Below are positions 1-17,358 of a stretch of 63,307 bases of DNA, piece after piece. The stretch comes from Methanocorpusculaceae archaeon UBA456 (lineage in GTDB: Archaea > Halobacteriota > Methanomicrobia > Methanomicrobiales > Methanocorpusculaceae): positions 1-63,307 of the forward strand of contig DAJQ01000023.1 in the NCBI GenBank assembly GCA_002496395.1, given 5' to 3'. The position numbers and the translations under genes are program-made. How positions within the stretch are numbered: position 1 is the first letter of the stretch; each line of letters starts with the position of its first letter. The notes below the pieces were generated by a model. That model did not search any database. It worked only from the letters and a program-made list of their open reading frames with translations, and had not been told where the DNA came from.

Positions 1-1
1 A

Positions 2-217
2 GAGATCTCCTATATTGTGTATATTCAGGTCTTTAATCCCAAGACAGGTGAACAGATCAGCACATATCTGGTGGCAGTCAGTTATGAGGGCAAAATCACT
101 TCGAAATACTACCCGAATCCGTCAAAAGTCGTCGGCGTCCCGATATCCAATTTCCCAATACCTTCCGCCATATGCCCCTGTTTTCACCACACCGCATCAA
201 TGTCTGCACTCAGGTGA
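2..217 (+). CDS. 3' end of a hypothetical protein (5'-truncated by window edge)
   Basis: Frame is open from base 2 (EISYIVYIQVFNPK...) to TGA at 215-217; no recognisable motif. Confidence 0.35.
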   Translation, partial: EISYIVYIQVFNPKTGEQISTYLVAVSYEGKITSKYYPNPSKVVGVPISNFPIPSAICPCFHHTASMSALR

Positions 218-896
218 CACACGACCAGTTCAGCCCACCGCCCTCAGTCGACGACCTGCGGGTGAAAGCCCGGACCGGAACGGGGACTCGCCCCCTGGTA
301 TCCGCCGGTACCGTCACAGATCCATACAGACGGTAGTCAAGTACCACCAGTTCTATCTCGATTCCCAGCGGGGGAGCGTTGTCCGAGAGCGGTTGGATGC
401 TTTCCGGCACGTATACAAGGGTCAAAGCGTGTGGAGAACATTGGCCTGATCCCTGTGAATCGGGTGCCTTTTCGGATGCATCTATCACTGGTGAGAAGGA
501 GAGTTCGTCACTCGTAATCCCGCCATCATCTACGACTCGTGCCATGGTAAATCCGGCGGAAACATCCGTGAAGTTTGCATCCATCGACTGCAACGCAAGC
601 ATCTTGCCGTCATCTGTCATGACGAGCACCGATTTCCAGTCTCCAAACGTCTTATACTGCACCCTCTCCGCGGGAAAGATCTCGGTCTCTCCGCCAATCA
701 TGGGTAGAGGAACCAGGATATCAGTTCCGGGGCTTCCCCCGTATGATGATACATTGTGAATTCTCACGGTATACTCATACATCTGATACGAGGGCTGGGT
801 GACATGAATATACCAGTTCGCTCCGAGTACTGATACCAGCAGGACGAGACCGAAGACGATCACGACTTTCAGGATAAATAATGAGATTTTTTTCAT
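210..896 (-). CDS. Hypothetical membrane-anchored/exported protein (228 aa)
   Basis: ATG start, N-terminal basic plus hydrophobic segment (MKKISLFILKVVIVFGLVLLVSVLG), soluble remainder. Confidence 0.75.
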   Translation of the reverse strand: MKKISLFILKVVIVFGLVLLVSVLGANWYIHVTQPSYQMYEYTVRIHNVSSYGGSPGTDILVPLPMIGGETEIFPAERVQYKTFGDWKSVLVMTDDGKMLALQSMDANFTDVSAGFTMARVVDDGGITSDELSFSPVIDASEKAPDSQGSGQCSPHALTLVYVPESIQPLSDNAPPLGIEIELVVLDYRLYGSVTVPADTRGRVPVPVRAFTRRSSTEGGGLNWSCVT

Positions 897-912
897 TTGA
901 TCCCCTTCATGA

Positions 913-1143
913 TTATCTCTTTACATAATCGACAAGGCCCATATTGTATCGTGCTCCATGTAAGATGCAATTTTCAGTATACTGATTCAATGTCGGATCA
1001 TCCTGCCAATTGGGATCTTGGTTCATCGCTGTTTCGATGTAATTCAGGTATTAATTGGAGACTGCTGTGGCCGCGGCTACAGGAATGCACAGAGTGCATG
1101 CGATGAGCAGAACGGCAAGTACCTGCACTGCTTTCACGATCAT
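913..1143 (-). pseudogene. Signal-peptide ORF interrupted by an in-frame TAA
   Basis: Manual translation: MIVKAVQVLAVLLIACTLCIPVAAATAVSN*YLNYIETAMNQDPNWQDDPTLNQYTENCILHGARYNMGLVDYVKR*. Internal TAA at 1051-1053; not in the ORF track. Confidence 0.45.
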
Positions 1144-1205
1144 GAGCCCCTCGTCATTCGCCAAGGCATGCAGAACACATCAATCACTCCGCAGGACATC
1201 ATCCC

Positions 1206-1829
1206 TCAGTCCTTTCCCTTCGGGGCAGATCGTCTTTCCCAGACGTAGAGGATGGGAAAAGAAACGACACCAATAAGCACGATTGCCTGGAGGAGGGGAA
1301 GAACAGGATACCCCAGTGCAAGGTAGCGCAGAACAATGATCACGGCTGCCATGAGGTAGAAGACAACTGATCGTGCAAGGGTGACGCGGCGCTCCCCGGC
1401 ATCGATGAAGACGATGCGCATCAGGAGCAGGCCAATGATGACAAGGACAGGGAGCCAGAATACCTGGTTGATGGAGTATGTAAGGGACGCGTAGAGATAG
1501 ATCAGGAAGATCACGACGGCAAGGACGGCATCGGTCACCTTCTCAACGAGGGCTCTTCTCTGCTTCGTCTTCTCCTCTCCCTGTTCTCCCAACCGGAGGG
1601 CGTGATGGAGACTGCTTATGGGGTTGGGGTCGTGCAGATTTTCCTTCCGCCTGTACCACACCATGACACAGAAATATATTGCAGTGAGGATCGCTGCCAG
1701 AGGAAATGCAGAAGCCGTGGATAACGGCAAGTAGCCACCCACGGTGGGAATAGCAATGATGAGAAACAATATCCAGTAGATTGCGAGTGAGCGCAAGAAT
1801 TCCTCTTTGACGATATGATCAATCCTCAT
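1206..1829 (-). CDS. Polytopic membrane protein (207 aa, about 6 TM segments)
   Basis: Several hydrophobic stretches; its ATG overlaps the upstream stop (ATGA at 1826-1829). Confidence 0.75.
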   Translation of the reverse strand: MRIDHIVKEEFLRSLAIYWILFLIIAIPTVGGYLPLSTASAFPLAAILTAIYFCVMVWYRRKENLHDPNPISSLHHALRLGEQGEEKTKQRRALVEKVTDAVLAVVIFLIYLYASLTYSINQVFWLPVLVIIGLLLMRIVFIDAGERRVTLARSVVFYLMAAVIIVLRYLALGYPVLPLLQAIVLIGVVSFPILYVWERRSAPKGKD

Positions 1830-2299
1830 GCGTACACCACCGACGCGCCAGCAGGAATTGCAAAGGTGAATTCATTAAGACAGTACCAATTAACTCCAGT
1901 CGATAGAATCTGATTACTTCCTGTAATATCCGGCCCGGCCGTAATCACAGCCGGAACCTCTACCGAATGGGGCCTGAAATGTTCCGTAACAACATTGTTT
2001 GCCAAATCAAGAGTCCAGACATCCTTTCCATCCGAGATCGTTTCGCTCCCGGAGTCAAACTCCGTCAACTTAAACTTAGCCGGTTTTTTCAGGATATAAT
2101 CTTTAAATTCGAGATATTCAGCTCCGGAGAATTCTGTAGTAATTGTAACTTCCCCTGCCATGTCATTGGTTGCTTCATACTTGGCCAAGGTACGATTGAC
2201 AATCACATCAGCTGTCAGCCCACCATACGCATCGACACATCCTGCAATAACGATGATGGAAACAAGGATTAAACTGAAAACAACTCCACTTCTTACCAT
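1826..2299 (-). CDS. LolA-like lipoprotein (short)
   Basis: Start MVRSG at 2299 after GGTGGTGA; lipobox-like IAGC; KKPAKFKL...ISDGKDVWTLD and C-terminal FTFAIPAGA resemble the LolA/outer-membrane lipoprotein-sorting family. Confidence 0.7.
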   Translation of the reverse strand: MVRSGVVFSLILVSIIVIAGCVDAYGGLTADVIVNRTLAKYEATNDMAGEVTITTEFSGAEYLEFKDYILKKPAKFKLTEFDSGSETISDGKDVWTLDLANNVVTEHFRPHSVEVPAVITAGPDITGSNQILSTGVNWYCLNEFTFAIPAGASVVYA

Positions 2300-2319
2300 A
2301 TTCACCACCCTCTCTAGCA

Positions 2320-2601
2320 TCAAAGTGACGGCATCCTCCCGTAAAAGGCTATCAGGAAGCACGCAACAAAGAGAAAAACCGCCAACAACGACCTATACCA
2401 ACGTCCAACACCAGGATGAATATCGGCAGGAAGTTTAACGGATCGCAGGAATGGAACCGACAGAGCCACTGCCAATGCATACAATACTGACGACAACAAA
2501 TTTGCCTGACCTATGTATTCTGGATACCAAATCGGAACAGCAAAACGGATGACCGTGGAGACCGCAAAAAGGAGCAAAAAAGTGAGGAGGGGTCTCAACA
2601 T
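2320..2601 (-). CDS. Small membrane protein (93 aa, about 3 TM), candidate immunity protein
   Basis: ATG at 2601 overlaps the last codons and stop of the halocin-like gene; almost entirely hydrophobic. Confidence 0.6.
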   Translation of the reverse strand: MLRPLLTFLLLFAVSTVIRFAVPIWYPEYIGQANLLSSVLYALAVALSVPFLRSVKLPADIHPGVGRWYRSLLAVFLFVACFLIAFYGRMPSL

Positions 2602-3326
2602 AGCCCAGCACCTTCACATGCCAACCTTGCATTCCAGTTGCATGCTTCGTAAGCTACAAGGAACTCACATAGTACAAAACAAGAACCGGCACAAATAACA
2701 ATAAATGCCGGGTGCATTGGTTTTAAGCAGAGAGCACCGCAAACCTCCGCGCATGCTCCGGATACAAGACCCGAACATACACCAGAGACTGCCCACATGC
2801 AAAAGTCGCATACAACCCCATCATCCCTCGTCTGGCCTCCACCCATGGGATCGTATCTCAGGTAGGAGACCATGCCATCATGCGCAACAACTGCTCGCGC
2901 ATCTTTCCCGAGCTCGTTACTGGCAAACACTAGGAAGGCTTTTTCATCGGATGCTGTCTTGGTGAGGTGCATTGTTACAAGAGTAGTGGTTACGGTCATA
3001 CTTTCGTTCGTTGTAACACCACTAATAACTCGAATCTGCTCGGTAGAAAGGGTAAATCCATCGCCGAGCAATGCATCCTTCAGGTGCCGAACAGCAGTAT
3101 CCGAGAGTGCCTCTGCAATTGCAGCATTTTTCGCATCTCCAGTGAGCTCATCCGAACTCACTACGGTAGTGGAGTCGTTTGCCACTCCATCGCTCTTAAT
3201 AAACGAACAACCGGGACAGGTTCCCGGTTCAAGAGGCTCGCAAGCCATCGCCGGCACAGTCGCAACACTCACCAGCAGTACTGCCAGGAGCACAGAGAAT
3301 GCCCGCATCCTAAAGTTTTCTTTCAT
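2595..3326 (-). CDS. Halocin C8-like precursor (243 aa: signal peptide, pro-region, 76-aa Cys-rich C-terminal domain)
   Basis: Start MKENFR at 3326 after GGAGG; signal ends AMA|C; last 76 aa (DDGVVCDFC...NARLACEGAGLC) carry 12 Cys and end like halocin C8 (ACNRAGLC, recalled). Confidence 0.8.
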   Translation of the reverse strand: MKENFRMRAFSVLLAVLLVSVATVPAMACEPLEPGTCPGCSFIKSDGVANDSTTVVSSDELTGDAKNAAIAEALSDTAVRHLKDALLGDGFTLSTEQIRVISGVTTNESMTVTTTLVTMHLTKTASDEKAFLVFASNELGKDARAVVAHDGMVSYLRYDPMGGGQTRDDGVVCDFCMWAVSGVCSGLVSGACAEVCGALCLKPMHPAFIVICAGSCFVLCEFLVAYEACNWNARLACEGAGLC

Positions 3327-3534
3327 GTGTTTTCCTCCGGTTTCTTTCCCCGGAAGCAGGTGAAACATACCTACAAGCGTATAGAACGCGTACGTTCCCT
3401 TTGCCTCCGGGCATGCAGGGCGTGTCATCCGGTCGTCAACCAGGGATGGGCAACCCCTGCCTTTTTGCGGCGACATTTCAATGCATCCACACAATGACTT
3501 GAACAGCGATCCATTTAGAAATTCTCTCCAATTC
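3265..3534 (-). repeat. Leader plus signal-peptide duplication, copy 1
   Basis: 3265-3354 matches 4811-4900 and 3401-3534 matches 4946-5080 at high identity, with a diverged core of about 45 nt between the blocks. Confidence 0.9.
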
Positions 3535-3807
3535 CTCGACACATCCGGGACGTCTCTTCATCACGTTAACTCGAATAAATGGTTCCTATGAGTACCCTTC
3601 CGTTCAGATCAGGGGCAAACCCGTCGGGATGGCAGGTATCGGATATATTTTGTCCTTCCTGAATTAGAAGCGATTCTAAAGAGGGATGATCTGTAAATAT
3701 CTTATTATTCGCATACAATCACCAATTGTAAAGATAATTGGCCGAAATAGATGGAAGAAGGATGATTGATAATCTGAGATTACGTAGATGGTATCAATAT
3801 ATCAACT

Positions 3808-4143
3808 TTATTTGTTTTCGCCCTCTCTCCCCCTCCGAATAAGGTAAAATCCAACGACAAACAAGATCGCGACTCCGAGCAGGGTACCTGCCAGAAGAAC
3901 GGGATGATAAAACACGCTAAAAGAATGTGATGAACCATGATATGCCACTGTATCACCATGATTGGACGTCTTCGAAGCTGCGTGTATGGTTTCTTCGTTA
4001 TCTGTCACTGAAAGCCAGACATGTGACGAATCGATCTCACTATCTTCAACCAGACTACCGGATGCATACACTATGCCATTGCTGGCAAAGATACAGCATA
4101 GCAGAATAATGCTGATCATCCATCCTCTACCAGTACTATTCAT
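3808..4143 (-). CDS. Small exported protein with C-terminal TM anchor (111 aa)
   Basis: N-terminal signal; C-terminal GDTVAY..SFSVFYHP, hydrophobic helix, RRGR; paralog at 31912-32262. Confidence 0.7.
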   Translation of the reverse strand: MNSTGRGWMISIILLCCIFASNGIVYASGSLVEDSEIDSSHVWLSVTDNEETIHAASKTSNHGDTVAYHGSSHSFSVFYHPVLLAGTLLGVAILFVVGFYLIRRGREGENK

Positions 4144-4207
4144 AACCCTTCTTGCTCCATTCTTCTTTTTTTATGCGTAATAAACAAGTAAATGACGAAT
4201 CTTCACT

Positions 4208-4872
4208 CTAAGACACATGCATTATATTCGTTTGTGTATGCGATAACGATGGGCTGTAGATAAAACCTGGTGGAGCATAAAAGAGGTGAGCCCCATTGGT
4301 GAAATAGTAACCTGACTCTGTAACCGTTTTACTGCTCTCTGCCTTAAGATTATAGGTCCCTTCATCGTTCTCGTACACATAATCGATAATCGTACCTGTC
4401 TGGCCATTTGGATCAAGCTTGCACAGGGCACTGGTAATCTCGCCGTACGGCATCCGTAAATAGGGAGGGAATACAACCCAGGACTCACTTCGATAGTCGA
4501 TCTCCCGACCACTAGCATCAATATCTGAAATGTGGCGCATCAGTATCGCGTTTCTCGTCGTCAGGATGTCGATAAACAGGGATTCCAGTTTGGATGCATC
4601 ATGCTGTATAACCTGAACCATATCATTTTCGTATTATAATACTCGTTTTGTATCTCAATTGGTAATTTTGAGAATTCTACAGGAGTAATTTTCTCGTAAA
4701 ATTCTCCCATAGAGATGTCCTTCCCCCGAAAATCAGTGACTATCGCAATGGATTCATCACCGGAAAACTCATTGGCTACCTGTGCAGCTACAGTTGGCAC
4801 CACGGCACCCACGCTCACCAGCAGTACTGCCAGAAGCACGGAGAATGCCTGCATTCTAATTTTCTCTTTCAT
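4208..4872 (-). pseudogene. Secreted protein split by a frameshift near 4620
   Basis: MKEKIRMQAFSVLLAVLLVSV... frame ends at 4561; an overlapping frame (QVIQHDASK...IMHVS) continues to 4208. Confidence 0.6.
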
Positions 4873-5080
4873 GTGTTTTCCTCCAGTTTCTTTCCCCGGA
4901 TGCGGAAGAGGCACACGTTTAAGTACGCAGAGTGTGTATCTTTTTTTGCCTCCGGGCATGCAGGGCGTGTCATCCGGTCGTCAATCAGGGATGGGCAACC
5001 CCTGCCTTTTTACAGACTTCATTTCACTGCATCCACACAATGACTTGAACAGCGATCCATTTAGAAATTCTCTCCAATTC
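4811..5080 (-). repeat. Leader plus signal-peptide duplication, copy 2
   Basis: Direct repeat of 3265-3534. Confidence 0.9.
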
Positions 5081-5361
5081 ATTTACACGTCAGCAGGTTT
5101 TTGCCGAAAGTGAACGGTTAAACCCTCCCAGGAAGATGAGGAACGGGAGAGAGCCCATTCTCACGGCGTCATATGCTGTACGGAACGCAAGAAGGCCCAA
5201 ACTGCCGCACTTGCGCACCCCCTGTACCCGAAGACCGGGTTCTGCGGACGGAACAGGCAGGCCTGCCGGCCGATAGCATAAACCCTATCAGCCATGAGCA
5301 ACAGATCAATCAATCTATACGAAAACCTGCCGAAGCCGAAACGCTCTGAACGTGAGATACT

Positions 5362-6048
5362 ATGAAAAAAAGCCGGATTGTCATCTTGAGCATCCTTTTA
5401 GCTCTCGTCTTCGTGCATTATCTCTATATGCCCGAGCAGCCCGAGATCACGAAAGGAACGATGCATATCGACTCCCGGCAATGTCGATCCGGTCTGGTCG
5501 ACCTCTGGAATACGCTTGTACAGGAGCAGGCGTTTTCGAACGAGTCGGCCGTGCTCATCCAGCTGACTCAGTATATCGACAAAGACAGAACAGTGCAGTG
5601 TACCGAACTCTTCCTGATCGGCTACGTAGACGGGGAGGGGCACGCGTACCAGATATATGCCCCCCAGAGCGGCAACGTATACTATAACGACCAGATATTT
5701 GACTTCCCGATGCAGGGGGTACATCCCCTCACCATATTACGCGAGGTTGACAGGATCGAGTTTGACGATATCACTCGCGGAGAATACAATATAACGCTCA
5801 CGACGTTCAAACACGATGGTCCAATGACCTACAACAAAACCCACGGCGACCTGTACATCCTCGCGGACGGATCTCTCCGTCCCCTGAAAGAGGCCGCATT
5901 CTCCTCCGAGGCCTACTGGTACACCATCGAGGTCTCCCCGGAGATCGGGCAGCCGGACAGGATTACGACTGCAGGGGGGATACCTGGTCACCTCATCCTC
6001 TTCCCCGAGCAGGAGATCGCCCGGGCCAACACCGTCGTCTATGCATGA
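5362..6048 (+). CDS. Hypothetical exported protein (228 aa)
   Basis: MKKSRIVILSILLALVF N-terminal anchor; coding-like composition. Confidence 0.75.
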   Translation: MKKSRIVILSILLALVFVHYLYMPEQPEITKGTMHIDSRQCRSGLVDLWNTLVQEQAFSNESAVLIQLTQYIDKDRTVQCTELFLIGYVDGEGHAYQIYAPQSGNVYYNDQIFDFPMQGVHPLTILREVDRIEFDDITRGEYNITLTTFKHDGPMTYNKTHGDLYILADGSLRPLKEAAFSSEAYWYTIEVSPEIGQPDRITTAGGIPGHLILFPEQEIARANTVVYA

Positions 6049-6152
6049 CGTGCAGGCGGCGCCCGAAGATTCTGAACGCATCCTCGATAAGCCGCTGGGT
6101 GATCCGGGAAAAGGGGCAAACGGTGTAATTATGGAGAACTGTCGAACGGCAA

Positions 6153-6926
6153 TCAGATACTGGTACCGGACACACGCCCCTCGGAGAACGCGGGCTTCCA
6201 CGCTCCGTGGGTTTGTACACACTCTTTTGCATCGGCGCAGAGGTAGTAGTGTACGAACCGTCCATTCCTCTCACCTCTGACAATACCGCCCCGGAGCAGC
6301 GGTTTCATATGCCAGGTGATGTTCGCACCCGACATTATAAGGTGGGAAGCGATCTCTTTTCTCGTGCTTCCCGGGTGTTGCAAAACGATATTGAGTATCA
6401 GACTCTTTGACTGCTCGTTGAGATATCCTGCCACCCTTCGTTCCAGATCGGAGCAGGCGGCCGTGTTGGCGTAATATCCCATGCGTCCGCAATTCTGCTC
6501 GGGAACGACCGTTCCCATCCTGCATAACATCTCTAGGTGGTAGCGTAGGGTTCCAATATTCATCCCGAGCAACCGAGAGAGAGAGCTTGTATTGATTCCC
6601 GGATTATCCCGTATGCACAGATATGCTGCATTCCGGGGTTCGTTCTCAAGGACGTTATGGTGCAGGACCCTCTTATGGCCGAAATGCAGCCATGCGAGCA
6701 GCGAGAATACAAGTTGTATCGGGATAAAGAGCGCCGGAGCAAATACGGATACGAGCCTGAGGATCACAATGTTCAGGGGTTCGTTCCAGATGTACACCGG
6801 AGTCAGATCCAAAGTCACCTGCTCAGGATTTACGTCCTGAACAGCAGTAGCAGATGCGACAGACGGCAACAGTACGAGGCAGAAAAAGATCAGAGCAATT
6901 CCGGCAATCCACACCCGCCTGACCAT
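6153..6926 (-). CDS. Membrane-tethered tandem winged-HTH transcriptional regulator
   Basis: Signal plus TM N-terminus, then two wHTH units (IRDNPGINTSSLSRLLGMNIGTLRYHL; LQHPGSTRKEIASHLIMSGANITWHMKPL). Confidence 0.8.
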   Translation of the reverse strand: MVRRVWIAGIALIFFCLVLLPSVASATAVQDVNPEQVTLDLTPVYIWNEPLNIVILRLVSVFAPALFIPIQLVFSLLAWLHFGHKRVLHHNVLENEPRNAAYLCIRDNPGINTSSLSRLLGMNIGTLRYHLEMLCRMGTVVPEQNCGRMGYYANTAACSDLERRVAGYLNEQSKSLILNIVLQHPGSTRKEIASHLIMSGANITWHMKPLLRGGIVRGERNGRFVHYYLCADAKECVQTHGAWKPAFSEGRVSGTSI

Positions 6927-7008
6927 GGATTTACATAAAACCTGTAGTTATAAAAAGATTTGGTTTGATTGGAGTTCGGCTTTGTTGAAATCATGTGAGA
7001 GGCAATCA

Positions 7009-7443
7009 TTAAACATAAGCATTGCAATTCAGAGCATACATAATAGTTCCTGTTACACTCTCTCCATACACTATAAGGCTCCAGGTACCTGATGCAGGGC
7101 TGCTTATATCCACGCGGATTCGTCCATTCAGGTATCCATCATAATTGTCATAGTACGAACCATACAGGCTCCCATCCGGCCTGTAGATCTCCAATCTCAG
7201 GGAATGATCGGGAGTAAACCAATTTAAGTCGACATTCAGGAAGGGCATACCGGCGGGTACATTGAACAGAAGAGTATCAGTTTCCCCCTGCGTGATCGTA
7301 AAAAACTCACGGGTTCCATATCCATCCATCTGCGAGAGAAGTCCCACAGGCCTGTCATTTTCACATCCGATACCTGTAGCTGAAACCATCGGCACGATGA
7401 AGGCGATGACAGCCAGAAGTCCTATAACGCGGCTGATCTTCAT
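7009..7443 (-). CDS. Small secreted protein with a PPC (pre-peptidase C-terminal)-like beta domain
   Basis: Start MKISR at 7443; signal ends VSA; VDLNW...LRLEIYRPDG...PASGTWSLIVYG is typical of PPC-like domains. Confidence 0.7.
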   Translation of the reverse strand: MKISRVIGLLAVIAFIVPMVSATGIGCENDRPVGLLSQMDGYGTREFFTITQGETDTLLFNVPAGMPFLNVDLNWFTPDHSLRLEIYRPDGSLYGSYYDNYDGYLNGRIRVDISSPASGTWSLIVYGESVTGTIMYALNCNAYV

Positions 7444-7754
7444 TAAAATCCACCGATAAGACATCGGAAGACCTCTGTATAAAAATTCTGTCCGATTTCT
7501 TTACACGTTTTATATATGCAGGCTGGACAGTGACTTGGGCAGGGAGAGGGAGTCAGGGTGTTTCCGGAACATCGCGCGAGATCTCGGACATTCAACCGAG
7601 AATCATCCGGATCTGCACCTTCATCGAAGAACAGGTGCAGCAGGGTGATGTTTTGCGCGGCGGGTTTTTGTCCGTTGCGCTGTGCAATCCCCCTGCAACC
7701 GCATGAGCAGCCACCTCCACCCGTCCTTTGTTCTAACTTCAATAACCCTCGCCC

Positions 7755-9104
7755 TTACATCAGGTACTCCTTCATCACGAAGAGTACGCGTGTATCCGCG
7801 TTCAACCGCTCGGCAAACTGCTCCCGCCCGTCACGATCCTGCGGGTATGACTGCATGCGGGCAAACCGTATCTCTTCAAGCGGGAAACCTTCCGCCAGAA
7901 GCAGGTTCTTAATGTCCTCCTCATCCATTTCTGGCGGATTCTGGCCGATGTCCAAAAGCCAGAGTGTACGGTCGTCTATACTCTTTGGGTTTTCGATGAC
8001 ACTCCAGAAAAAAGCATCGCTGGCGCAGAACACCAAAAAGGCTGAGTGATTCTCAAGACGTGCCCGGTACCCGGCAAAATTCGCGGCGCTTGCGTTGAGG
8101 CAGAGCCAGGATCTTCCGGGGCTCGTCCTTATTCCTCCCGGAAGAGAGCCTTCGCCGAGGTGCTCCGCGATGGCGGCAGAGATCTCATCGTCTGAGAGAG
8201 CGGCATCGTAGGCGATGGCGACATCCCATTCCGCCGTCCGCTGCCATTCCTCCAGTTCCCTCTGCTGTGCAATCAACTCTGACTCGGATAGAGGGGTGAC
8301 AGGAGGTGGGGTTCGTGTCGATACGATTTCCCGTTGTCTGAAAAACTCCATATAGGACTCAAAATCATCCTCAGAGAGAATTTGCCGGAGATCGATATCA
8401 TGTCCTTCTGCAAACGAGATTATCTCGTGATAACGTGCATTTATATCTCGCCATACAGCAATCCTGCTCTCGATCTCATCCGGGTCGAGGGTGCGTCCGA
8501 GGTGATCGACGGCTGCACCTTCGTCTGCTGGTTCCCGCTCAACAATCATCCCGGATGCCGGATCTATCAGGAAGAGTTTCTCCGTATCGTTCACCGCCAT
8601 CGCCCATATCAGGACACCGGTGACCGGCGGGGCGTAGCATGGGAGAGCCTCCTGAATGATCCATCCAGGATATGTGCGCTCTGTTGTTGCAACTGCCAGG
8701 CGTATGGCATCATCGGGGTCAAAGGTCGGTGATGTAATCCCATACTCCATCACCGAACCGCCGAGAACCGTCCGGGCTGCGATCGTAATGCTCCCAATCA
8801 CCATGCCACCACTCTTCACCGGGTACTGGTAGACAAAAGGCCTCCCGTTGCGGTCGAAAAAGAGCAGGGACTCTCCCCCAATAGTAGCGCCCCTCCATGC
8901 CTCATCTTCGGCGAGTCCCGGATCCGCAACGATGAATTCGACGAGCGCCGCAGTCGCGTGATCGCGGGCGATCTCCTCAGCGACGAGATATGGATCTACA
9001 GGCTCTGTAATTAGTGGAGGAGGAGTCAAAAAAAGGACGGCACTTGCAAGAATAATGCATGTGACGACAGCAGCAATAACAATTATACGTTCTCTTCGGC
9101 TCAT
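7755..9104 (-). CDS. Hypothetical membrane-anchored exported protein (about 449 aa)
   Basis: Start MSRRERIIVIAAVV at 9104 (ATGA overlap with the upstream small ORF); N-terminal TM, acidic soluble body. Confidence 0.8.
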   Translation of the reverse strand: MSRRERIIVIAAVVTCIILASAVLFLTPPPLITEPVDPYLVAEEIARDHATAALVEFIVADPGLAEDEAWRGATIGGESLLFFDRNGRPFVYQYPVKSGGMVIGSITIAARTVLGGSVMEYGITSPTFDPDDAIRLAVATTERTYPGWIIQEALPCYAPPVTGVLIWAMAVNDTEKLFLIDPASGMIVEREPADEGAAVDHLGRTLDPDEIESRIAVWRDINARYHEIISFAEGHDIDLRQILSEDDFESYMEFFRQREIVSTRTPPPVTPLSESELIAQQRELEEWQRTAEWDVAIAYDAALSDDEISAAIAEHLGEGSLPGGIRTSPGRSWLCLNASAANFAGYRARLENHSAFLVFCASDAFFWSVIENPKSIDDRTLWLLDIGQNPPEMDEEDIKNLLLAEGFPLEEIRFARMQSYPQDRDGREQFAERLNADTRVLFVMKEYLM

Positions 9105-9268
9105 GGCATCACCGTCAGTAACCAACCATAATATGCGTTCATAAACCCATATGGTGCTATTTCAGACTCCACTAAGGGATGATATTCCGACTCATTATTA
9201 ACATTTACTGCTGGCACAACACACATGCACAACAGTAATATGGCAAAAGACACGGAGAGTGCCTGCAT
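9101..9268 (-). CDS. 55-aa signal-peptide-bearing small ORF
   Basis: Manual translation MQALSVSFAILLLCMCVVPAVNVNNESEYHPLVESEIAPYGFMNAYYGWLLTVMP*; N-terminus resembles MQAFSVLLAVLL of the 4872 gene; below the track cutoff. Confidence 0.5.
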   Translation of the reverse strand: MQALSVSFAILLLCMCVVPAVNVNNESEYHPLVESEIAPYGFMNAYYGWLLTVMP

Positions 9269-9364
9269 TGCATTTTTCCATTCATATAACCATTCTCCCG
9301 GTTATGTCGCAGGCACATCATCAAGGCTCACATACTGACTTGTTGACCAGCTAATTTATTATCT

Positions 9365-9392
9365 CTCTCCAATTCCTCGACACATCCGGGAC
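9365..9392 (-). repeat. Third partial copy of the cassette upstream region
   Basis: 28 nt identical to 3524-3551 (ctctccaattcctcgacacatccgggac); weaker similarity continues to about 9420. Confidence 0.85.
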
Positions 9393-9414
9393 ATCCCTTC
9401 CTCACGTAAGCTCG

Positions 9415-9452
9415 AGTCAACTACCCCCTCCGTTAGGTGGGGGTAGTTGACT
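9415..9452. repeat. Perfect 14-bp inverted repeat resembling an IS200/IS605-family end
   Basis: AGTCAACTACCCCC, 10-nt loop, GGGGGTAGTTGACT. Confidence 0.7.
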
Positions 9453-9823
9453 GAATGCTTGGTAATATTCCTGATACTATCGTATTATGTGTGTCTTGTA
9501 CACATTTTTCCAACCTATTTTGTGATAGATGTACACATTTTCCTAACTTAACCTATGAAGAGCCATACTTTGAAAGATCCCCGGATAGAGAACCAAATTT
9601 CCAGCCTGCCTTTTTCTCTCAACATTTCTCACATCCACTCTTCCCACATGAAATATCTGCATTACAGCCTGCTGAATACCTATGCAGGGGGATGGAGAGA
9701 TAGATCCGGGAAACTGAGAGCGAGACGGCGGTGAACAGAGCATCAACACAGGCGATCAACGGAAAATATGAGAAAGAAGGTATTTTCCCAATCAGAGAAG
9801 AAGAATAACAACGGAGAGAATCT

Positions 9824-10713
9824 ATGAAGATACAAACGATTACAGCAGCAACCCTCGTGCTTGCACTCTGTATCCTCTTCACGTGCGGATGCACCACGAC
9901 GACGGAGACAAACCAGCTGCCGCCAGTAACAGCACCCACGGCCCTCTCGTATAATGATATCCCGGTTCAGTATGCCGAGGTGAACGGCATCACGCTCGGG
10001 TATCGTGAATTCGGGGCGGAGAACACCGAACCGCTTCTCATGCTTGTAGGGTTTGGCGAGACGATGAATACCTGGAATCCCACGTTCATCGGTATTCTTG
10101 CAGAAGACTTCCATGTGTATACCTATGACCACCGTGGCATGGGGGAGAGCACCGATGTCGACGCCCAGTAACCATTGCACAGCTTGGAGACGATGCAGCA
10201 GGGCTGATGACCGCACTCGGGTACGACAGCATGAATATCTACGGCGTCTCGATGGGATCGACCGTTTCACAGCAGCTCCTGATCGATCCCCCTGAGAAGG
10301 TGAGAAAGGCCATCCTCTCCTCCGCCACGTACAACGCTTCCATTCCGGAGACCAGTCTGCTGCACCAGTTACTCGAAACGACTGCGGCAGATCCGAATAA
10401 GCCTGACGGCACCCGAAAGGAGGCCATGGCAAACCTCGCATGGGAGGGCAGTTATGACAGCCTCCCGGGGATTACAAATCACGTCATGCTCATCACCGGA
10501 ACCGCTGATATCCTGACTCCGCCATCAGTCGCGATCGAGATGGCAGGCCAGATTGATGGATCATGGCTCATCCGTTTCAAAGATATCCCCCACGGAGGAT
10601 CAAGGTATGCTCCCATCGAATACGGGACTATCACGACGACATTCCTGAAGCTGGACGAATCTCCTGAATATTCTATTCGGGACATTCTCAACTCCACCAA
10701 AATCGCAGAATAG
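9824..10713 (+). pseudogene. Alpha/beta hydrolase lipoprotein, frameshifted near 10165
   Basis: ORFs 9824-10171 and 10207-10713 join if one C is added to CCC at 10164-10166 (DAPVTIAQLGDDAAGLM); nucleophile elbow GVSMG; HGG near the C-terminus. Confidence 0.8.
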
Positions 10714-10752
10714 AAATGCAAATCAGATAAGTCTTCAGAGATCGACAGAAAG

Positions 10753-10939
10753 AACAAACTCCACTTCGCAATACACGGAAATACTGCCGCTGAACTGATA
10801 GTGAATCGTGCAAGATTTCAGGGTTATACAGGACAGGCTGTATGAAAGCGATTTTGATCAAATGATTCAGGAAGCAGAAACAAAAGCCCAAAAGAAGAAT
10901 CCAAAAACAAGCGCAGGAGAGAAGAAGAGTCAGGAGTAA
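10753..10939 (+). pseudogene. Internally deleted remnant of a RhuM-family gene
   Basis: NKLHFAIHGNTAAELIVNRA (10753-10812) abuts, in another frame, QDFRVIQDRLYESDFDQM...* (10811-10939); both match recalled RhuM motifs. Confidence 0.6.
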
Positions 10940-10944
10940 ACACG

Positions 10945-11484
10945 ATGATCCACCCCCACAGAAACATCATCCTGATCGGCATGCCGGGGGCCGGGAAGAG
11001 CACCGTCGGCGTCATACTTGCAAAGACGCTCGGCATGCAGTTCATTGATTGCGACATCCTGATACAGCAGCAGACCGGGAGGAAGCTTCAGGAGATCCTC
11101 GACACAGACGGCCCCGATACATTCCGGACGATCGAGGAGGAGGCGATCCTCTCCCTCGCCGGGCAGGAGGAAAAAGGTCAATCTGACGGCCATTTTTCCG
11201 CCTATGCGGTGATTGCAACCGGCGGGAGCGTCGTCTGGAGCAGGGCGGCGATGGAGCACCTGAAATCACTTGGATTGGTCGTGTACCTGGAGATCTCCTT
11301 TTCAGAGATGGAAAAAAGGATCAGAAACATCACCACACGGGGAATCGTCCTCATGCCGAACCAGACTCTCCGCGGGATGTATGACAGCCGGGTGCCACTC
11401 TATGAGCAGTATGCCGATATCACCATTGCGTGTTCAGATAAGGATCTCGAGTCCGTGGTAAGCGGGATACTTGAGAGGGTGTAA
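10945..11484 (+). CDS. aroK: Shikimate kinase, bacterial/NMP-kinase type
   Basis: GMPGAGKST P-loop, DCD, F(R)..EEE, ATGGSVV, R.PLYE motifs. Confidence 0.85.
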   Translation: MIHPHRNIILIGMPGAGKSTVGVILAKTLGMQFIDCDILIQQQTGRKLQEILDTDGPDTFRTIEEEAILSLAGQEEKGQSDGHFSAYAVIATGGSVVWSRAAMEHLKSLGLVVYLEISFSEMEKRIRNITTRGIVLMPNQTLRGMYDSRVPLYEQYADITIACSDKDLESVVSGILERV

Positions 11485-11656
11485 GTGAACCGGGGGAACA
11501 ATGCTGCCCCACCACCGTATTTCACAGCCCTATGACCAGGAAAGATTATTTCATCCAACAATTTCCCAACTCAAATAGAACCATTTTTCCCGATTATCAG
11601 CACTAATATAACTATTCATTAAGAGAAGGAGAACCCTTCAGGGTACATTGGTGCAA

Positions 11657-12055
11657 ATGGAAGAGTTCACGTTTGAAGAAGTGGTTAGATATCAGATTGC
11701 CATCATTCTCGCAAGTGATAATGATGAGGATCGGGGACTTGAGGGAAAACTACTCAATCCCGGAAATCTTGACTTCGCTCTCAGCTTTTGCATACAATAT
11801 TCCAATCCATTTGACAGAGCTGCGTATATTTTACATAGCCTTGCAACAGGACATCCTTTTGTTCAGGGAAATAAACGAATTGCCTTTCTTCTCGCCGCCC
11901 TCATTCTATTACGGACAGCTGAGCGATACGTCATTATGAGTTCCGATATCGTGAACAATCGTTTTGTACGGGATGTTGCTCAGGGAATAAAAACACAGAA
12001 AGACGTAAAGGACTGGCTCATCTCTATTACAAAAAAGAGCGAGGAACTATTCTGA
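11657..12055 (+). CDS. Fic/Doc-family toxin (Doc-like)
   Basis: HPFVQGNKRIA Fic motif in a protein of about 132 aa; TTG at 11648 is an alternative start. Confidence 0.85.
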   Translation: MEEFTFEEVVRYQIAIILASDNDEDRGLEGKLLNPGNLDFALSFCIQYSNPFDRAAYILHSLATGHPFVQGNKRIAFLLAALILLRTAERYVIMSSDIVNNRFVRDVAQGIKTQKDVKDWLISITKKSEELF

Positions 12056-12367
12056 GAGGAGCTTGAGAGTCTTTTTATGCCGTTTCATGAGCGTGTTGAA
12101 ATCCTCATCCTTTGAAGGATACTTCGGGTTGTCTTGAGAGGCAGTTTGTGATTCTTCCTCAGATTTGCAGGAATTAGATCGTTTTGGATATCCGGATACT
12201 ACCGATTCCCTGACTAAATCAGCAGATCTCTCCGGCAAGAGGGAGGCGTACAGACCATCCGGTTGATTGTGACCTTTTTTCTTATCTGTAACTTCTTTCC
12301 GCGTATACAACAGGATACCCCCCATATTTAGAGTAGTTTTGTACTCTGTACTTTTATATCGTCGCAC
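12047..12367 (-). CDS. Hypothetical protein, possible antitoxin
   Basis: Convergent with Doc, 9-nt 3' overlap; C-terminal helix FNTLMKRHKKTLKLLSE. Confidence 0.55.
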   Translation of the reverse strand: MRRYKSTEYKTTLNMGGILLYTRKEVTDKKKGHNQPDGLYASLLPERSADLVRESVVSGYPKRSNSCKSEEESQTASQDNPKYPSKDEDFNTLMKRHKKTLKLLSE

Positions 12368-12598
12368 TATTAATGTTCAGGTCATGGTAGCCATCAGAGA
12401 AAATACGTATTCATCGCCAAGGCCGAACCTATAGATCCATGCAGAAACAGATTTGCCTCGTCACACTATCCAAAGCCCTGGATCAAACAGGCAGATAATT
12501 ATTTCAGAGGAGACCATGAATTAAGCAGGTAGTCTCTGGCACCGGATCACCGGCTGCCGGTCGAATGGGATCTTTTCATAGGTGTTGGGGTGAAGTGA

Positions 12599-14641
12599 GT
12601 GAATGTTCAAAACCAGATTATCGTCATAATCATCCTGGCAATCGCCTCTCTGATTGTAGGACTCGGTTTTGCTACACACACGCTCATTCTCAACGATTTT
12701 GCCGATCTTGAAGATAATCACCTCGAAGATACGATGGGGAGAACCATCAGATCAATTGAGAGGGAGCAGCAGTTCCTCTCAACAAGTGTTCTGGACTGGT
12801 CTGACTGGGATGACACCTACTGGTTTGTGCAGGGGATGGATTCGGACTATGTGCAGAAGAACCTTGACGATTCTGTATTTGAATATTTTAACCTCAATGC
12901 AATGATCTTCACCGGACCGGATGGTGATGTAGTCTTTGGGCGTGGATTCGACCCGGATGAGGGTGAAGAGAGAGAGGTTCAACCGCAGCTCTATACACTC
13001 CACGACTCCCTCCTCCGATCTGGTGCCGAAGAGCTCTCCGGGATCTTTAAAACAGAAGACGGGCTGATGCTCGTTGCAGTACGACCGATCCGGATGAGCC
13101 AGGGGGAGGGGCCTGCCAGGGGCACTCTCCTCTTTGCACGTGCAATGGATGAAGGATGGATTGCGGATCTCTCGGATCTCACCGGATATCCGATCCAGAT
13201 CACCGATATTCCGGAAGCGCCTCTTCCAGCCGTTGAACCCTCTCTCGCCATTTCAAAGGAGGGAGATACCATCACCGGATCAGCTATACTATCCGATCTC
13301 TTCGGAAAGCCGGTGATGGTGCTCTCGATAACCCAGGATCGAACAATCTACCAGAAAGGGATTCGCGCCTACCAGTCGGGGGTGATGGCGATCCTGGTCT
13401 TCTCGGCCATCACTGCCATCCTCTTCTACCTGCTCATCAACCACTTCTTCCTCAGGAGAATTACCCGGCTGAACCGGGAGGTGCAGAATATCACAAGCAG
13501 TACCTCCACCACTGCATCAGTTGGAATCGACGGTGATGACGAAGTGGCAGAACTCGCAACCTCGATAAACGGTATGCTTGAGTTCATGGAGAAAGATCAG
13601 CAGGTGATCCGTGAAAGCGAAGAGAAATACCGCCTTATCGCCGAGAATACCGCAGATATCATCTATATCTGCGATATGAACCACAATCTCACCTATATCA
13701 GTCCTTCGGTTACGAAGGTGAAAGGTTTCACCATTGAGGAGGCGCTTGCGATGCCGATTGAAGAGAGGAATACTCCCACCTCCATAAAAGAGATCATGGC
13801 ACTCTTTGCTCTGGAGATGGAAAAAGAAGCCTCATGTGCTGCTGATCCGGGCAGAACTGTCACGTTCGAGAGTGAAGAGTACTGCAGGAATGGATCAACC
13901 ATACTGATTGAGAACTCTGTCCGGTTCCTGAGGAATATCGATGGCGAGCCGGTTTCGATTCTGGGTATCGGCCATGATATTACCGAGCGGAAAAGGGCAG
14001 AGGATGCACTCCAGCTCACAAACGCGAAACTCCAGCTCCTCTCCTCCATCACCCGCCATGATATCCTGAACAAGGTGATGATTGTGAAGGGATACCTCGG
14101 GCTGGCAGAGGAGTTACATGGCGAGAGCGTGCAGGCAGAGTACCTGAAAGAGGCACAAAAAGCCACTGAAGCAATCCAGAAACAGATCGAATTCACACGC
14201 GAGTACCAGCAGCTCGGGATACAAAGTCCGGCATGGAAGACCATCATCAGCCTGATCGAATCAATCGATGACAGAGAACTCCCGATCGTCTGTGATTGTG
14301 ACCGGATCTCGATCTATGCCGACCCGATGATCGAGAGGGCCTTCTTCAACCTCTATGAGAACACCCTCCGCCATGCAGAAGGGGCAACCCGTGTGCAGAT
14401 CCGGTGTGAAGAGACCGATTCCGGCCTCCTGATCACCTGGGAGGATGATGGCCCCGGCATCCCGGATAAGGAGAAGGAGGTCATCTTCGAACGCGGGTAT
14501 GGCAAGAACACCGGATTTGGGTTATTCCTTGTCCGAGAGATCCTCGATATCACCGGGATTACCATACTTGAGGATGGGGTTGCCGGGGAAGGCGCACGAT
14601 TCCGGATGCTGGTGCCGGAAGGCGGGTACCGGATCGGATAG
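12599..14641 (+). CDS. Sensor histidine kinase (CHASE4-HAMP-PAS-HisKA-like-HATPase)
   Basis: DWSDWDDTYWFV (CHASE4), GDDEVAELA (HAMP), YRLIAENTADII (PAS), ITRHDILN (H-box), NLYENTLRHA, EDDGPGI, GFGLF. Confidence 0.92.
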   Translation: MNVQNQIIVIIILAIASLIVGLGFATHTLILNDFADLEDNHLEDTMGRTIRSIEREQQFLSTSVLDWSDWDDTYWFVQGMDSDYVQKNLDDSVFEYFNLNAMIFTGPDGDVVFGRGFDPDEGEEREVQPQLYTLHDSLLRSGAEELSGIFKTEDGLMLVAVRPIRMSQGEGPARGTLLFARAMDEGWIADLSDLTGYPIQITDIPEAPLPAVEPSLAISKEGDTITGSAILSDLFGKPVMVLSITQDRTIYQKGIRAYQSGVMAILVFSAITAILFYLLINHFFLRRITRLNREVQNITSSTSTTASVGIDGDDEVAELATSINGMLEFMEKDQQVIRESEEKYRLIAENTADIIYICDMNHNLTYISPSVTKVKGFTIEEALAMPIEERNTPTSIKEIMALFALEMEKEASCAADPGRTVTFESEEYCRNGSTILIENSVRFLRNIDGEPVSILGIGHDITERKRAEDALQLTNAKLQLLSSITRHDILNKVMIVKGYLGLAEELHGESVQAEYLKEAQKATEAIQKQIEFTREYQQLGIQSPAWKTIISLIESIDDRELPIVCDCDRISIYADPMIERAFFNLYENTLRHAEGATRVQIRCEETDSGLLITWEDDGPGIPDKEKEVIFERGYGKNTGFGLFLVREILDITGITILEDGVAGEGARFRMLVPEGGYRIG

Positions 14642-14743
14642 AGAGCCGGAGATCAAGGTACTCATCGCAGGGTACCCGGCCAGTGATTCTCTATCGATCT
14701 CTATCGAGAGGATAAAAGCCACAATCCTCCCATCCCAAAGCCC

Positions 14744-14752
14744 TTATATATA
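14744..14752 (+). promoter_or_regulatory. Putative TATA box of the transglutaminase gene
   Basis: TTATATATA 21-29 nt upstream of the ATG at 14773. Confidence 0.5.
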
Positions 14753-14772
14753 GATACGTTACTTTTACCCCT

Positions 14773-16299
14773 ATGCGAATTGGAATCTCACTTCCCGCAA
14801 TCATCATCCTGGTGATTGCCTTGCTCGCTTTTGCAGGCTGCGTCTCCGATCAGCCGGTGTACCAGGAATCAGGCATCGGCGAGATGGAATATAACAAAGG
14901 GCTTGCCGAATATGAAGCCGGGAACTACCGGGCCGCAGAAGCAGCGTTTGAAGGATCGGCGGCCTGGTACTTTGCCAATGGATACCCGGATGCCGGAATT
15001 GCCTCGCGGAATGCGATGTTTAATGCAATCAGAACCTATGCTGAGTTTTCACTGGATGAAGCCGCTGCACGGGATATCCTCAGGGAGAAAGTACCCGGCA
15101 TCACCGATTCAGAGATAGATGCATGGCTTGCAGACGAAGCCCAGACACTGGTCTCCGACGGCGAGACCCTCTACTTCCATGATGTCGCAAAGAACTACGT
15201 CTATGCCCATCCTGAACTCCTTCAGAAACAAAAGCTGGCATTCACCTTTGCATTTATGTCCCGGTATGCACTGGCAGATGATATCCAGGCAGGCAACCTG
15301 AAGGCCGAGGAGCTCCCCTACAGGAACCCTGTCCACTATGAAGGGACGATGCGGCTGGAGATCGCAGAAGAGGATCTCCCGGCAGGAGGCACCCTGAAGA
15401 TCTGGTATCCGCACCCGATTGCAACCGATATCCAGCGTGATGTTGCTGTCACAAATATGGCATACCCGGAGTATATCGTGAATGGGCCGGATGTCAATCA
15501 CGAGATCGGGATCATCTACTACGAAATACCAGTCAATGCAATACAAGGCGATCTGGTCATCACTGCGGATATCAAATTCACCTCCTATGAGGGGATCTTT
15601 ATTGTCGACCCAGAAACAGTCGGCGAGTACGATACAAGCGATCCGGAGTATATCCTCTATACCAGATCCGAGCGGAACATCGAGGTAAATGACGCGATCA
15701 GAAACAAAGCCCATGAGATCGTCGGAAGCGAGACAAATCCCCATAAGCAGGCGCAGATGATCTACGAACATATCATCACCACCTACCCCTACAGCCATGT
15801 CCCGCATCTCTCGCTTGATACCAGGACTCCCAAAGTCGCCGAGTCGACCCATATGTTCACCACAGGTCGTGGCGACTGCGGCACCCAGAGCATGCTCTTC
15901 TCTGCATTCTGCCGCTCGCTCGGCATTCCTGCACGTGCCACCGGCGGGTACCAGATGATCCTCCAGAATGCGCCAAGCCCCCATTTCTGGGCTGAATACT
16001 ATCTCCCGGGATACGGGTGGGTGCCGGTCGATCCGACCGTTGCCGATGGAGGTGACTGGTTCGATGTCCCCGAAGAGGACAGGGCAGCCTATCAGAGATA
16101 TTATGGAACCAACATCGACCCGACCAGGCTTGTGATCCAGAAGAATGTCGATGCGAAAGTTGAACCGGATTACCCCAAAGATGCCGCGATCTTCAGGCTT
16201 GCCAGGCAGTATCCGGCGATTGTAAGCGATACATCCATGCAGGATATGGAGCTCATTGCAATGGGAAGCTTCAGAATCGATCTTGTGGAGAAGAACTAA
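14773..16299 (+). CDS. Transglutaminase-like domain lipoprotein
   Basis: Lipobox FAGC; GDCGTQS...LGIPAR, HFWAE and WVPVDPT give a Cys-His-Asp triad. Confidence 0.88.
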   Translation: MRIGISLPAIIILVIALLAFAGCVSDQPVYQESGIGEMEYNKGLAEYEAGNYRAAEAAFEGSAAWYFANGYPDAGIASRNAMFNAIRTYAEFSLDEAAARDILREKVPGITDSEIDAWLADEAQTLVSDGETLYFHDVAKNYVYAHPELLQKQKLAFTFAFMSRYALADDIQAGNLKAEELPYRNPVHYEGTMRLEIAEEDLPAGGTLKIWYPHPIATDIQRDVAVTNMAYPEYIVNGPDVNHEIGIIYYEIPVNAIQGDLVITADIKFTSYEGIFIVDPETVGEYDTSDPEYILYTRSERNIEVNDAIRNKAHEIVGSETNPHKQAQMIYEHIITTYPYSHVPHLSLDTRTPKVAESTHMFTTGRGDCGTQSMLFSAFCRSLGIPARATGGYQMILQNAPSPHFWAEYYLPGYGWVPVDPTVADGGDWFDVPEEDRAAYQRYYGTNIDPTRLVIQKNVDAKVEPDYPKDAAIFRLARQYPAIVSDTSMQDMELIAMGSFRIDLVEKN

Positions 16300-16582: not shown

Positions 16583-16658
16583 AGAGAATGATGCGTCATA
16601 TAAGTATATATAACCAAAGCTGAACGTGGCCTGAATCAGGAGTCACCCTTCCCACCAC

Positions 16659-17240: not shown

Positions 17241-17358
17241 GGGATATGGTTCACTGTATGGCAGGAAAAGGATCACCTTTTGATCACCGGATGTGAAAAA
17301 GAGGAGGGAAGGGATACTTTCTCCTCCAGTTGATCCAGCCCCGGATGTTCAACCAGCA

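Follow-up and report, generated by a model that had tools for sequence, protein, structure and literature searches.

Constant 5' segments that front changing genes are known from several settings. At the vsp and vlp loci of Mycoplasma and in the conotoxin superfamilies divergence or exchange affects the mature regions, whereas the 5' untranslated region (UTR) and signal peptide are highly conserved and together provide a recombination handle; the mature parts are variants of one type of protein, as is seen in antigenic variation and in venom diversification. The bacterial polymorphic toxins (Rhs/YD, CDI and LXG) have a constant 5' part that includes a delivery domain which stays on the toxin, variable payloads past a sharp boundary, replacement from strain to strain, and truncated displaced cassettes. 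The archaeocin halocin C8 (HalC8) is made as a 283-aa precursor that is exported by the Tat pathway and yields HalI and a 76-aa peptide, its gene having halR, halU and halT as neighbours (bioRxiv 10.64898/2026.07.27.741052), and the same preprint, there citing Makarova et al. 2019, notes that the family is already known beyond the haloarchaea. Here we describe a locus with likenesses to each of these at the start of contig DAJQ01000023.1 of Methanocorpusculaceae archaeon UBA456: it is an acquired genomic island on which several unrelated secreted-protein genes lie behind copies of one promoter, one folded RNA leader and one export signal. The whole stretch of DNA that was analysed, of 63,307 nt from the contig start, is referred to as the window; the host genome (2.07 Mb, 53 contigs, 99% complete) is that of a Methanocalculus species.

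We put a probability of about 0.7 on the complete explanation, namely that a ~16-kb island carries an array of a portable module, that the genes behind the module (the payloads) are exchanged, and that one payload is a halocin C8-like operon. The constant 5' part, the sharp boundary, the replacement between strains and the truncated displaced cassettes are as in the polymorphic toxins, and for one payload a small membrane protein is encoded immediately downstream. The constant part is different in kind, being a promoter, an RNA leader and a signal peptide that is cleaved rather than a domain that remains on a toxin, and the payloads are whole proteins of unrelated families, mostly hydrolase-like or without assigned function, with no general pairing of toxin and immunity genes seen. 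The unrelatedness of the payloads also separates the locus from vsp/vlp loci and conotoxins, and no site-specific switch or phase-variation element was found in it.

The repeated module and its folded leader

Units are named by their start codons, all on the minus strand: unit 1 at 3326, unit 2 at 4872, unit 3 at 9268 and unit 4 at 1143. Comparison loci are designated L002-L006, L010, L015 and L071-L080, and comparison genomes G006, G014, G044, G046 and G102; G006 and G102 are other Methanocalculus genomes (congeners), and L071/L072 is a JGI metagenome contig of 111.7 kb (the sister contig) with 93-97% nt identity to the window in the shared parts. A prediction made from the letters of the window (the original prediction) held that all four units start with related signal peptides. 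This is so for units 1, 2 and 3, whose signal peptides (MKENFRMRAFSVLLAVLLVSV, MKEKIRMQAFSVLLAVLLVSV and MQALSVSFAILLL, respectively) are related in both DNA and protein; the start of unit 4 (MIVKAVQVLAVLLIA) has no DNA similarity to the other three and belongs to a recombination scar described below. Upstream DNA is indeed common to units. Over 282 nt, positions 3265-3545 match 4811-5091 at 84.8% identity, rising to 99% in a 67-nt core, and the likeness between units 1 and 2 spans ~200 nt upstream of the ATG together with the first 21-28 codons, and then ends. A third, partial copy is in two separate parts. Its distal part of ~90 nt (9329-9415) is 79% identical to 3488-3574 and holds a 23-nt exact word (none expected in 100 shuffles; the exact run is ~29 nt as judged by eye), and its other part (9220-9285) is 76% identical to the stretch of unit 2 that encodes the signal peptide. 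The mature parts of the units are mutually unrelated by blastp, as had been claimed.

The module consists of a promoter box, a structured 5' leader of ~173 nt and a 28-residue Sec signal peptide. The box follows the consensus RAYGTGT..GAAT.GGA.AGA and precedes a TATA-like element. Box and structured leader are present at unit 1 (3318-3545, minus strand) and unit 2 (4864-5091, minus strand, with the box at ~5046-5091), and the partial module of unit 3 (9329-9415, minus strand) has the box and TATA-like element without the structured leader, as seen from the box alignment. A further box related to those of units 1-3 (7465-7509, minus strand; repeat family D4, 83%, and an alignment of the four boxes) stands before the pre-peptidase C-terminal (PPC) protein and regulator genes discussed below. 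No further copies of the module were found in the host genome by searches with the sequence and with the covariance model of the leader (R1).

The leader was recognised by aligning upstream regions of the window with those of relatives reached through the halocin family, which delimits it to ~173 nt between box and ATG. Single-sequence folds concur on a 5' hairpin (P1), an extended hairpin (P2) and a long helix (P3) in which CCCGGAGGCAAAG pairs with CUCUUUUGCCUCCGGG. The Shine-Dalgarno (SD) region (C.GGAGG) is likewise complementary to the 3' strand of P3, and the leader could therefore free or sequester the ribosome-binding site; the anti-SD stretch (GCCUCCGGG) has two alternative predicted partners, the real SD and a pseudo-SD that lies upstream (CCCGGAGGC). 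R1 was used to realign 41 instances, and structure counts were made on the 37 distinct sequences. In this alignment 82.3% of the cells form a standard pair, against 38-48% with the partners slid, and both sides have changed in 31 of 51 pairs, against 9-19 with the partners slid; the observed pairing values were reached by 0 of 500 shuffles. R1 matches unit 1 at 3318-3490 (145.9 bits) and unit 2 at 4864-5036 (139.1 bits), in each case including the ATG, and gives no match at units 3 and 4. A search of positions 1-12000 of the window with Rfam 15 (E <= 0.1) returned no leader family, the sole hit being a spurious long non-coding RNA.

Comparison of the leader and signal block with the host genome and with Methanomicrobiales at large, a check that accompanied the original prediction, shows R1 matches in 69 of the 201 Methanomicrobiales genomes, which represent 18 of 40 genera; single genomes of genus g6 have as many as 13 scored copies. 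The host genome has only two copies, both at this locus, and R1 has no match in 8 other Methanocalculus genomes; the leader here lies outside its usual hosts, on a horizontally acquired island. The genes behind R1 open with a near-identical signal peptide (MNGNIGMRALSALFAVLLVSVGVVPAMA) and, at 28 loci, fall into at least 13 unrelated families, among them Transglut_core proteins (transglutaminase-like proteases), a Reprolysin-like M12 metallopeptidase, DUF6345 proteins, a second Cys-rich halocin-like family and many without assigned function. Since unrelated families lie behind R1 across Methanomicrobiales, the common N-terminus is not exclusive to a toxin locus, and the module is a general one for secreted-protein genes in Methanomicrobiales.

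The extra promoter box precedes a gene for a secreted 151-aa protein with a PPC domain (7009-7464, minus strand; PF04151, E = 1.3e-5), homologues of which adjoin halocin clusters in L004 and L005, and a gene for a membrane-tethered regulator with two winged-helix domains (6153-6926, minus strand; HTH_24 and HTH_HVO_0163_N). The closest orthologues of the regulator are in genus g6, at 76-80% identity, and for 8 of 11 of them the distance to an R1 leader is 1.1 kb, as it is in the window; its same-genus paralogues are matched at only E ~1e-22. Because the box recurs before the PPC-regulator operon and the g6 orthologues lie near the leader, the winged-helix protein is a candidate regulator acting on the box, a role that is supported, not proven.

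An island with exchanged payloads

Alignment of the congeners G006 and G102 with the window begins at 9451 and extends rightwards only; to the left of this position they share with each other sequence that is missing here. The point at which homology to other Methanocalculus starts is marked by an att-like repeat of ~20 nt (9451-9472; GGAATATTACCAAGCATTCAG on the minus strand), and just inside the edge there is a hairpin with a 13-bp stem (GTCAACTACCCCC / GGGGGTAGTTGAC; 9416-9451) that is conserved in L072. In L072 the ~20-nt direct repeat is found at both island ends with ~16 kb between them, and in G006 it is single, representing the empty site. Judged from these comparisons, positions 1-9451 are one end of a ~16-kb island, the only end within the window. 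No tRNA gene that could be an integration target was found in positions 1-20000. The source of the island is most likely a member of the Methanomicrobiaceae, because the regulator is 76-80% identical to its g6 orthologues, the halocin precursor is 87% identical to that of the metagenome-assembled genome (MAG) UBA206, compared with 68-70% for MCM and RFC, and the leader is otherwise absent from the genus.

The DNA just outside the border has features of its own. Two tandem 33-nt units (TATTATGTGTGTCTTGTACACATTTTTCCAACC) lie at 9483-9548, and related copies adjoin the attachment-like repeat of G006 and occur close to the opposite end of the island in L072. Next to the island, an alpha/beta-hydrolase lipoprotein gene (9824-10713, plus strand) is split into open reading frames (ORFs) of 115 and 168 aa by a 1-nt deletion (CAGTA-ACC vs CAGTATACC); in G006 and L071 the gene is intact, at 296 aa.

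Comparison of synteny, which had been proposed as a way of detecting payload swapping, shows that gene order and payloads differ between the window and the sister contig. L071 is collinear with the window from 10743 to 4809, through the 449-aa, PPC, regulator and AF_1575-like genes and the first module, and diverges just past the signal peptide. On the sister contig the first module is followed by a 95+210-aa payload and then by a segment equal to window positions 1067-1, the second by an intact unit-2 payload and the 111-aa gene, and the third, at the place of the halocin operon in the window, by genes for a 376-aa protein and its 391-aa paralogue; a fourth module lies further along. The L071-specific payloads are absent from the whole host genome (99% complete), and the halocin operon was not found in the ~29 kb of the L071/L072 contig that was read. 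Between the halocin unit of the window and the third unit of L071, homology ends at codon 28, the GCT codon of the cleavage motif (PAMA vs SAMA). As the homology stops at the signal-peptide cleavage site, the payloads have really been exchanged, and the suspicion that this locus is fed by recombination is borne out, with other genes standing behind the same modules and breakpoints at the signal-peptidase site.

Two junctions within the window point the same way. Unit 2 combines the N-terminal variant of the first L071 module (MK.K.RMQAF) with the payload of the second, a hybrid that a crossover inside the signal-peptide coding region would produce. At position 1067 the halocin operon meets what is left of the L071 210-aa gene, its last ~45 codons, and this junction, which lies in no repeat, explains what had been taken for unit 4 (913-1143, minus strand; L071 homology begins at window 1067). 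Here a short hydrophobic ORF (1054-1143) runs to a stop codon, beyond which those ~45 codons continue in the same frame. We rejected unit 4 as a fourth cassette because it is a recombination scar, made up of this ORF and the 3' end of a gene that L071 has in full. Displaced remnant cassettes are represented by 913-1067 and by L010 and L015. The end of the window contig coincides exactly with the entry of L071 into the next copy of the repeat, and the array probably continues beyond window position 1.

The halocin C8-like operon

Unit 1 encodes a halocin C8-like precursor of 243 aa (2595-3326, minus strand), and the expectation that one unit would be an intact halocin-like precursor is upheld by TIGR04449 and the family alignment. 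The protein has a Sec signal with predicted cleavage after PAMA, a pro-domain, and a C-terminal hydrophobic peptide of 71 aa with 12 Cys. Profile matching assigns the C-terminal domain to the halocin C8 family: TIGR04449 is covered from 1 to 69 of its 69 positions at residues 173-243, is matched by 8 of 8 full-length homologues (best E = 8.8e-6), and scores 26-35 bits with the more distant relatives P0018, P0022 and P0065. A profile search of 1.84 billion cluster representatives gave 97 relatives of the precursor, which have in common the signal peptide and the pro-domain motif EL.G..KNKAIAEALS..V..L, and whose Cys-rich hydrophobic C-termini show several differing patterns. Structure prediction, another of the suggested checks, was carried through for this payload as far as an AlphaFold2 model (mean pLDDT 60.9, with 70-85 in the pro-domain) that has a pro-domain of a helix-loop-helix and a beta-sheet and a C-terminal helical hairpin; it yielded no fold assignment, since Foldseek found no PDB match below E = 0.2.

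The gene is a further member of the known halocin family in a methanogen, not a new kind of archaeocin. Its plan is that of halocin C8 (ProC8 of Natrinema sp. AS7092), in which a precursor of ~250-280 aa has an N-terminal export signal, a pro-region of ~140 aa and a C-terminal hydrophobic Cys-rich peptide of ~70 aa. It is unlike halocin C8 in that its export signal is of the Sec and not the Tat type, with no twin-arginine motif in the precursor sequence, and in that its peptide has 12 Cys, compared with 10 in the HalC8 peptide. The HalI domain PF22862 (Hac8_like_N) gave no Pfam match at E <= 1 in the window protein and 9 relatives, and another conserved pro-domain takes its position. The halR, halU and halT1-3 (ABC-transporter) genes are not among the neighbours, which instead encode a 93-aa membrane protein, a LolA-like lipoprotein and a polytopic membrane protein. 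Finally, the host is a non-halophilic methanogen and the gene sits behind a shared leader module.

These neighbours are all on the minus strand. The ATG of the gene for the 93-aa protein, which has three membrane helices (2320-2601), overlaps the last halocin codons, and such a membrane protein is encoded directly 3' of the halocin gene in all ten loci examined (among L002-L006 and L075-L080), the 7-nt overlap being kept in L075, L079 and L080. From this arrangement it is a candidate immunity or export partner. The gene for the LolA-like lipoprotein (1826-2320; lipobox IAGC, weak LolA matches) follows that of the membrane protein in L002, L004, L005 and L006 as well, and is absent in L075-L080. 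Last in the operon is the gene for the 207-aa polytopic membrane protein (1206-1829; weak bestrophin-like match), of which a 69%-identical remnant adjoins the decayed halocin locus of G046. Copies of the halocin gene at 90% nt identity have different surroundings elsewhere, with MCM as the neighbour in L002 and HicAB and AddAB-like genes in L075-L080.

Several of the related loci have features worth recording. In L075-L080, which are from another lineage, the halocin and membrane-protein genes are followed by a HicA/HicB-like pair and an AddAB-like helicase-nuclease, and there is a recombination breakpoint inside the membrane-protein gene (window 2468). L010 (G046:C1:1261620-1261778) is a decayed halocin gene with an ORF of 58 aa, in which the signal peptide and the first ~25 mature residues are fused directly to the last five residues (GAGLC); the remnant of the 207-aa membrane protein lies 1.8 kb from it and is leader-fronted. 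L004 (JAGLZA010000417.1, 4.7 kb) is labelled candidate division WOR-3, and its halocin-like, small membrane protein, LolA-like and PPC genes and two R1 matches are like those of the methanogen loci; probably an archaeal contig was mis-binned here. In a 2026 preprint a WOR-3 homologue, which may be this contig, is listed as a possible case of halocin C8 acquisition by bacteria. CcdA/DsbD-like thiol-disulfide membrane proteins adjoin the halocin-like clusters of L003 (1-727) and L005 (12140-13228), which fits a need to oxidise many cysteines; the host genome has no homologue of these. L005, from a distant AT-rich methanogen MAG, also contains three repeats of ~620 nt (5128-5767, 9405-10046 and 13210-13848; 89% column identity) that precede PPC-like, halocin-like and LolA-like genes, and each has two inverted copies of the box AGTTAGAGA.ATTGGCCGGAA with a TATA element, which suggests divergent promoters.

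Mechanism, alternatives and the remaining genes

We propose that the module would give its payload common expression control and export, the control probably having two levels, with the neighbouring winged-helix regulator, tethered to the membrane, acting at the promoter box and the leader acting on translation. The module copies, being 85-93% identical, could serve as substrates for homologous recombination, which would delete, replace or shuffle whatever lies behind the cleavage site. One such payload would be the archaeocin operon, comprising the precursor, the translationally coupled 93-aa membrane protein (candidate immunity), the LolA-like lipoprotein and the polytopic membrane protein, and the locus may have an antagonistic function. 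A wider proposal is that the module is a portable express-and-export adaptor of Methanomicrobiales, under a membrane-tethered one-component sensor and a translational pseudo-SD/anti-SD switch, and also a recombination handle for trading archaeocins and peptidases; we offer this tentatively, as an extension that is possible but on balance doubtful. If true, the adaptor would be a functional archaeal counterpart of polymorphic-toxin or integron-like cassettes, with an RNA leader in the role that a protein domain or attC site has there. Antagonism and secretion control in methanogens are almost unexplored, and the locus provides a concrete archaeocin candidate outside the haloarchaea, with conserved accessory genes unlike those of the halC8 cluster, as well as a natural experiment in which two near-identical strains have different payloads behind identical modules. 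It shows a non-coding leader and signal peptide as the exchange point for secreted-protein genes, mobile between methanogen families on an island.

The original prediction saw in the constant N-terminus, variable payloads, adjacent immunity genes and decayed cassettes the hallmark of a polymorphic toxin locus. In a true archaeal toxin-immunity locus of this sort the N-terminus would direct delivery, the payloads would be toxins, the downstream genes would confer immunity and the decayed cassettes would be a recombination reservoir. Payload exchange between close strains at a fixed boundary, an archaeocin homologue among the payloads, the decay of unit 2, 913-1143, L010 and L015, and the constant coupling of a small membrane protein to the halocin gene are all consistent with it. 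The constant part, however, is an ordinary Sec signal of 28 residues plus non-coding DNA, with no RHS/YD, LXG, filamentous or other delivery domain detected with Pfam and NCBIfam, and the payloads found elsewhere behind the module, from the transglutaminase-like protease, M12-like peptidase and DUF6345 proteins to the many without assignment, include no recognised toxin domain. Nor do the comparisons support an adjacent immunity gene for each payload, as had been supposed: a conserved partner is seen only for the halocin, the neighbours of the unit-2 family vary by genome, and the 449-aa protein downstream of unit 3 has an anchor and a family of its own. Because the constant part is regulatory and directs export, most payloads are no recognisable toxins and a partner is conserved only for the halocin, the locus is not a polymorphic-toxin system in the strict sense, and we consider a toxin-immunity locus of the full kind unlikely.

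A little less likely again is an ordinary regulon of paralogous surface or secreted proteins, whose upstream likeness is inherited or gene-converted and whose swapping is largely an artefact of mixed-strain assembly. All breakpoints but one are in the repeated module, 6 of 6 metagenome contigs with the halocin gene break 350-590 nt upstream of it, in the leader, and the window contig stops just where L071 runs into another repeat copy, as such an artefact would have it. What argues for real exchange is that gene content and not just order differs, with the L071 payloads missing from the host genome and the halocin operon from the ~29 kb of sister contig; that the junction at 1067 is in no repeat and cuts a gene; and that the module-plus-halocin unit occurs in unrelated neighbourhoods of four other lineages. 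We regard as very improbable the further suggestion of a peptide-signalling locus, in which the short ORFs (55 aa here and 55 aa in L003) would be exported signals sensed by the winged-helix regulator and its PPC partner, and our comparisons gave signalling no support. At two independent loci a ~55-aa ORF that carries the shared signal peptide does precede a gene for a membrane protein, and a membrane-bound one-component regulator is present on the island, but the mature parts of the two ORFs are unrelated, the window ORF is split by an insert of ~165 nt in the sister contig, and vestiges of module duplication account for such ORFs more simply.

Some observations weigh against the explanation that we prefer, the island with a module array and exchanged payloads. 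The breakpoints coincide with repeats, where metagenome assemblers also mis-join strains; the difference in gene content and the junction at 1067 are independent of such mis-joining, and part of the rearrangement may reflect assembly across repeats. The precomputed Pfam hits for L071/L072 reveal neither an integrase nor a recombinase gene on the island, an AAA_14/DUF4143 ATPase being the only mobile-element-like gene among them; several ORFs there are without annotation. GC does not mark the island (0.50 vs 0.52). The covariation was counted on an alignment fitted by a model whose structure itself derives from the member sequences. The TIGR04449 score of the precursor is borderline, at 20.9 bits with hmmscan and 24.4 bits in a six-frame genome search, with a cut-off of 24. 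The candidate immunity protein of 93 aa is only 44% identical in L075-L080 where the halocin is 92% identical, which is odd for a strictly cognate pair.

The other units of the array are decayed or tiny, as originally described: unit 2 is frameshifted, unit 3 is a short ORF and unit 4 is interrupted by a stop. The unit 2 payload, a secreted protein of ~229 aa, is a pseudogene here (4208-4872, minus strand), having lost 28 nt near 4620 between short GGTT repeats relative to the intact copy of L071; the family is also intact in G014 (227 aa, 53% identity). Genes for membrane-anchored proteins or lipoproteins do follow the units, as reported, namely the 93-aa and LolA-like genes after unit 1, a 111-aa gene after unit 2 and a 449-aa gene after unit 3. 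The 111-aa protein (3808-4143, minus strand) has a signal peptide and a C-terminal membrane anchor, and its gene follows unit 2 here and in L071-L074; in the more distant genomes G014 and G044 the unit-2 homologues have other neighbours. Unit 3 is an ORF of 55 aa (9101-9268, minus strand) that opens with the shared signal peptide, as seen in the ORF list and the repeat alignment, and it is probably a vestige or an upstream ORF before the gene for the 449-aa protein (7755-9104, minus strand). The latter is N-terminally membrane-anchored and belongs to a small Methanomicrobiales family (8 homologues, no Pfam domains). A fusion of the two ORFs was rejected, all 7 homologues of the 449-aa protein having their own N-terminal anchor. 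The insert that splits the unit 3 ORF in L071 (9737-9904, corresponding to ~9262 in the window) is ~165 nt long with inverted ends (GGGTCTGTCTAAA ... TTTAGACAGTCCC) and resembles a miniature transposable element; no copy of it is present in the host genome.

Searches with Pfam and NCBIfam gave no match for the unit-2 payload, the 449-aa and 111-aa proteins, two 228-aa proteins of the window or the L071 payloads, and a zinc phospholipase C assignment considered for the 210-aa L071 payload was dropped as unsupported by Pfam. One of the 228-aa proteins (5362-6048, plus strand) is AF_1575-like, by virtue of PF27293 on its L071 orthologue, with no match in the local copy of Pfam. The other (210-896, minus strand) is N-terminally anchored and common to L071, where it follows a different payload.

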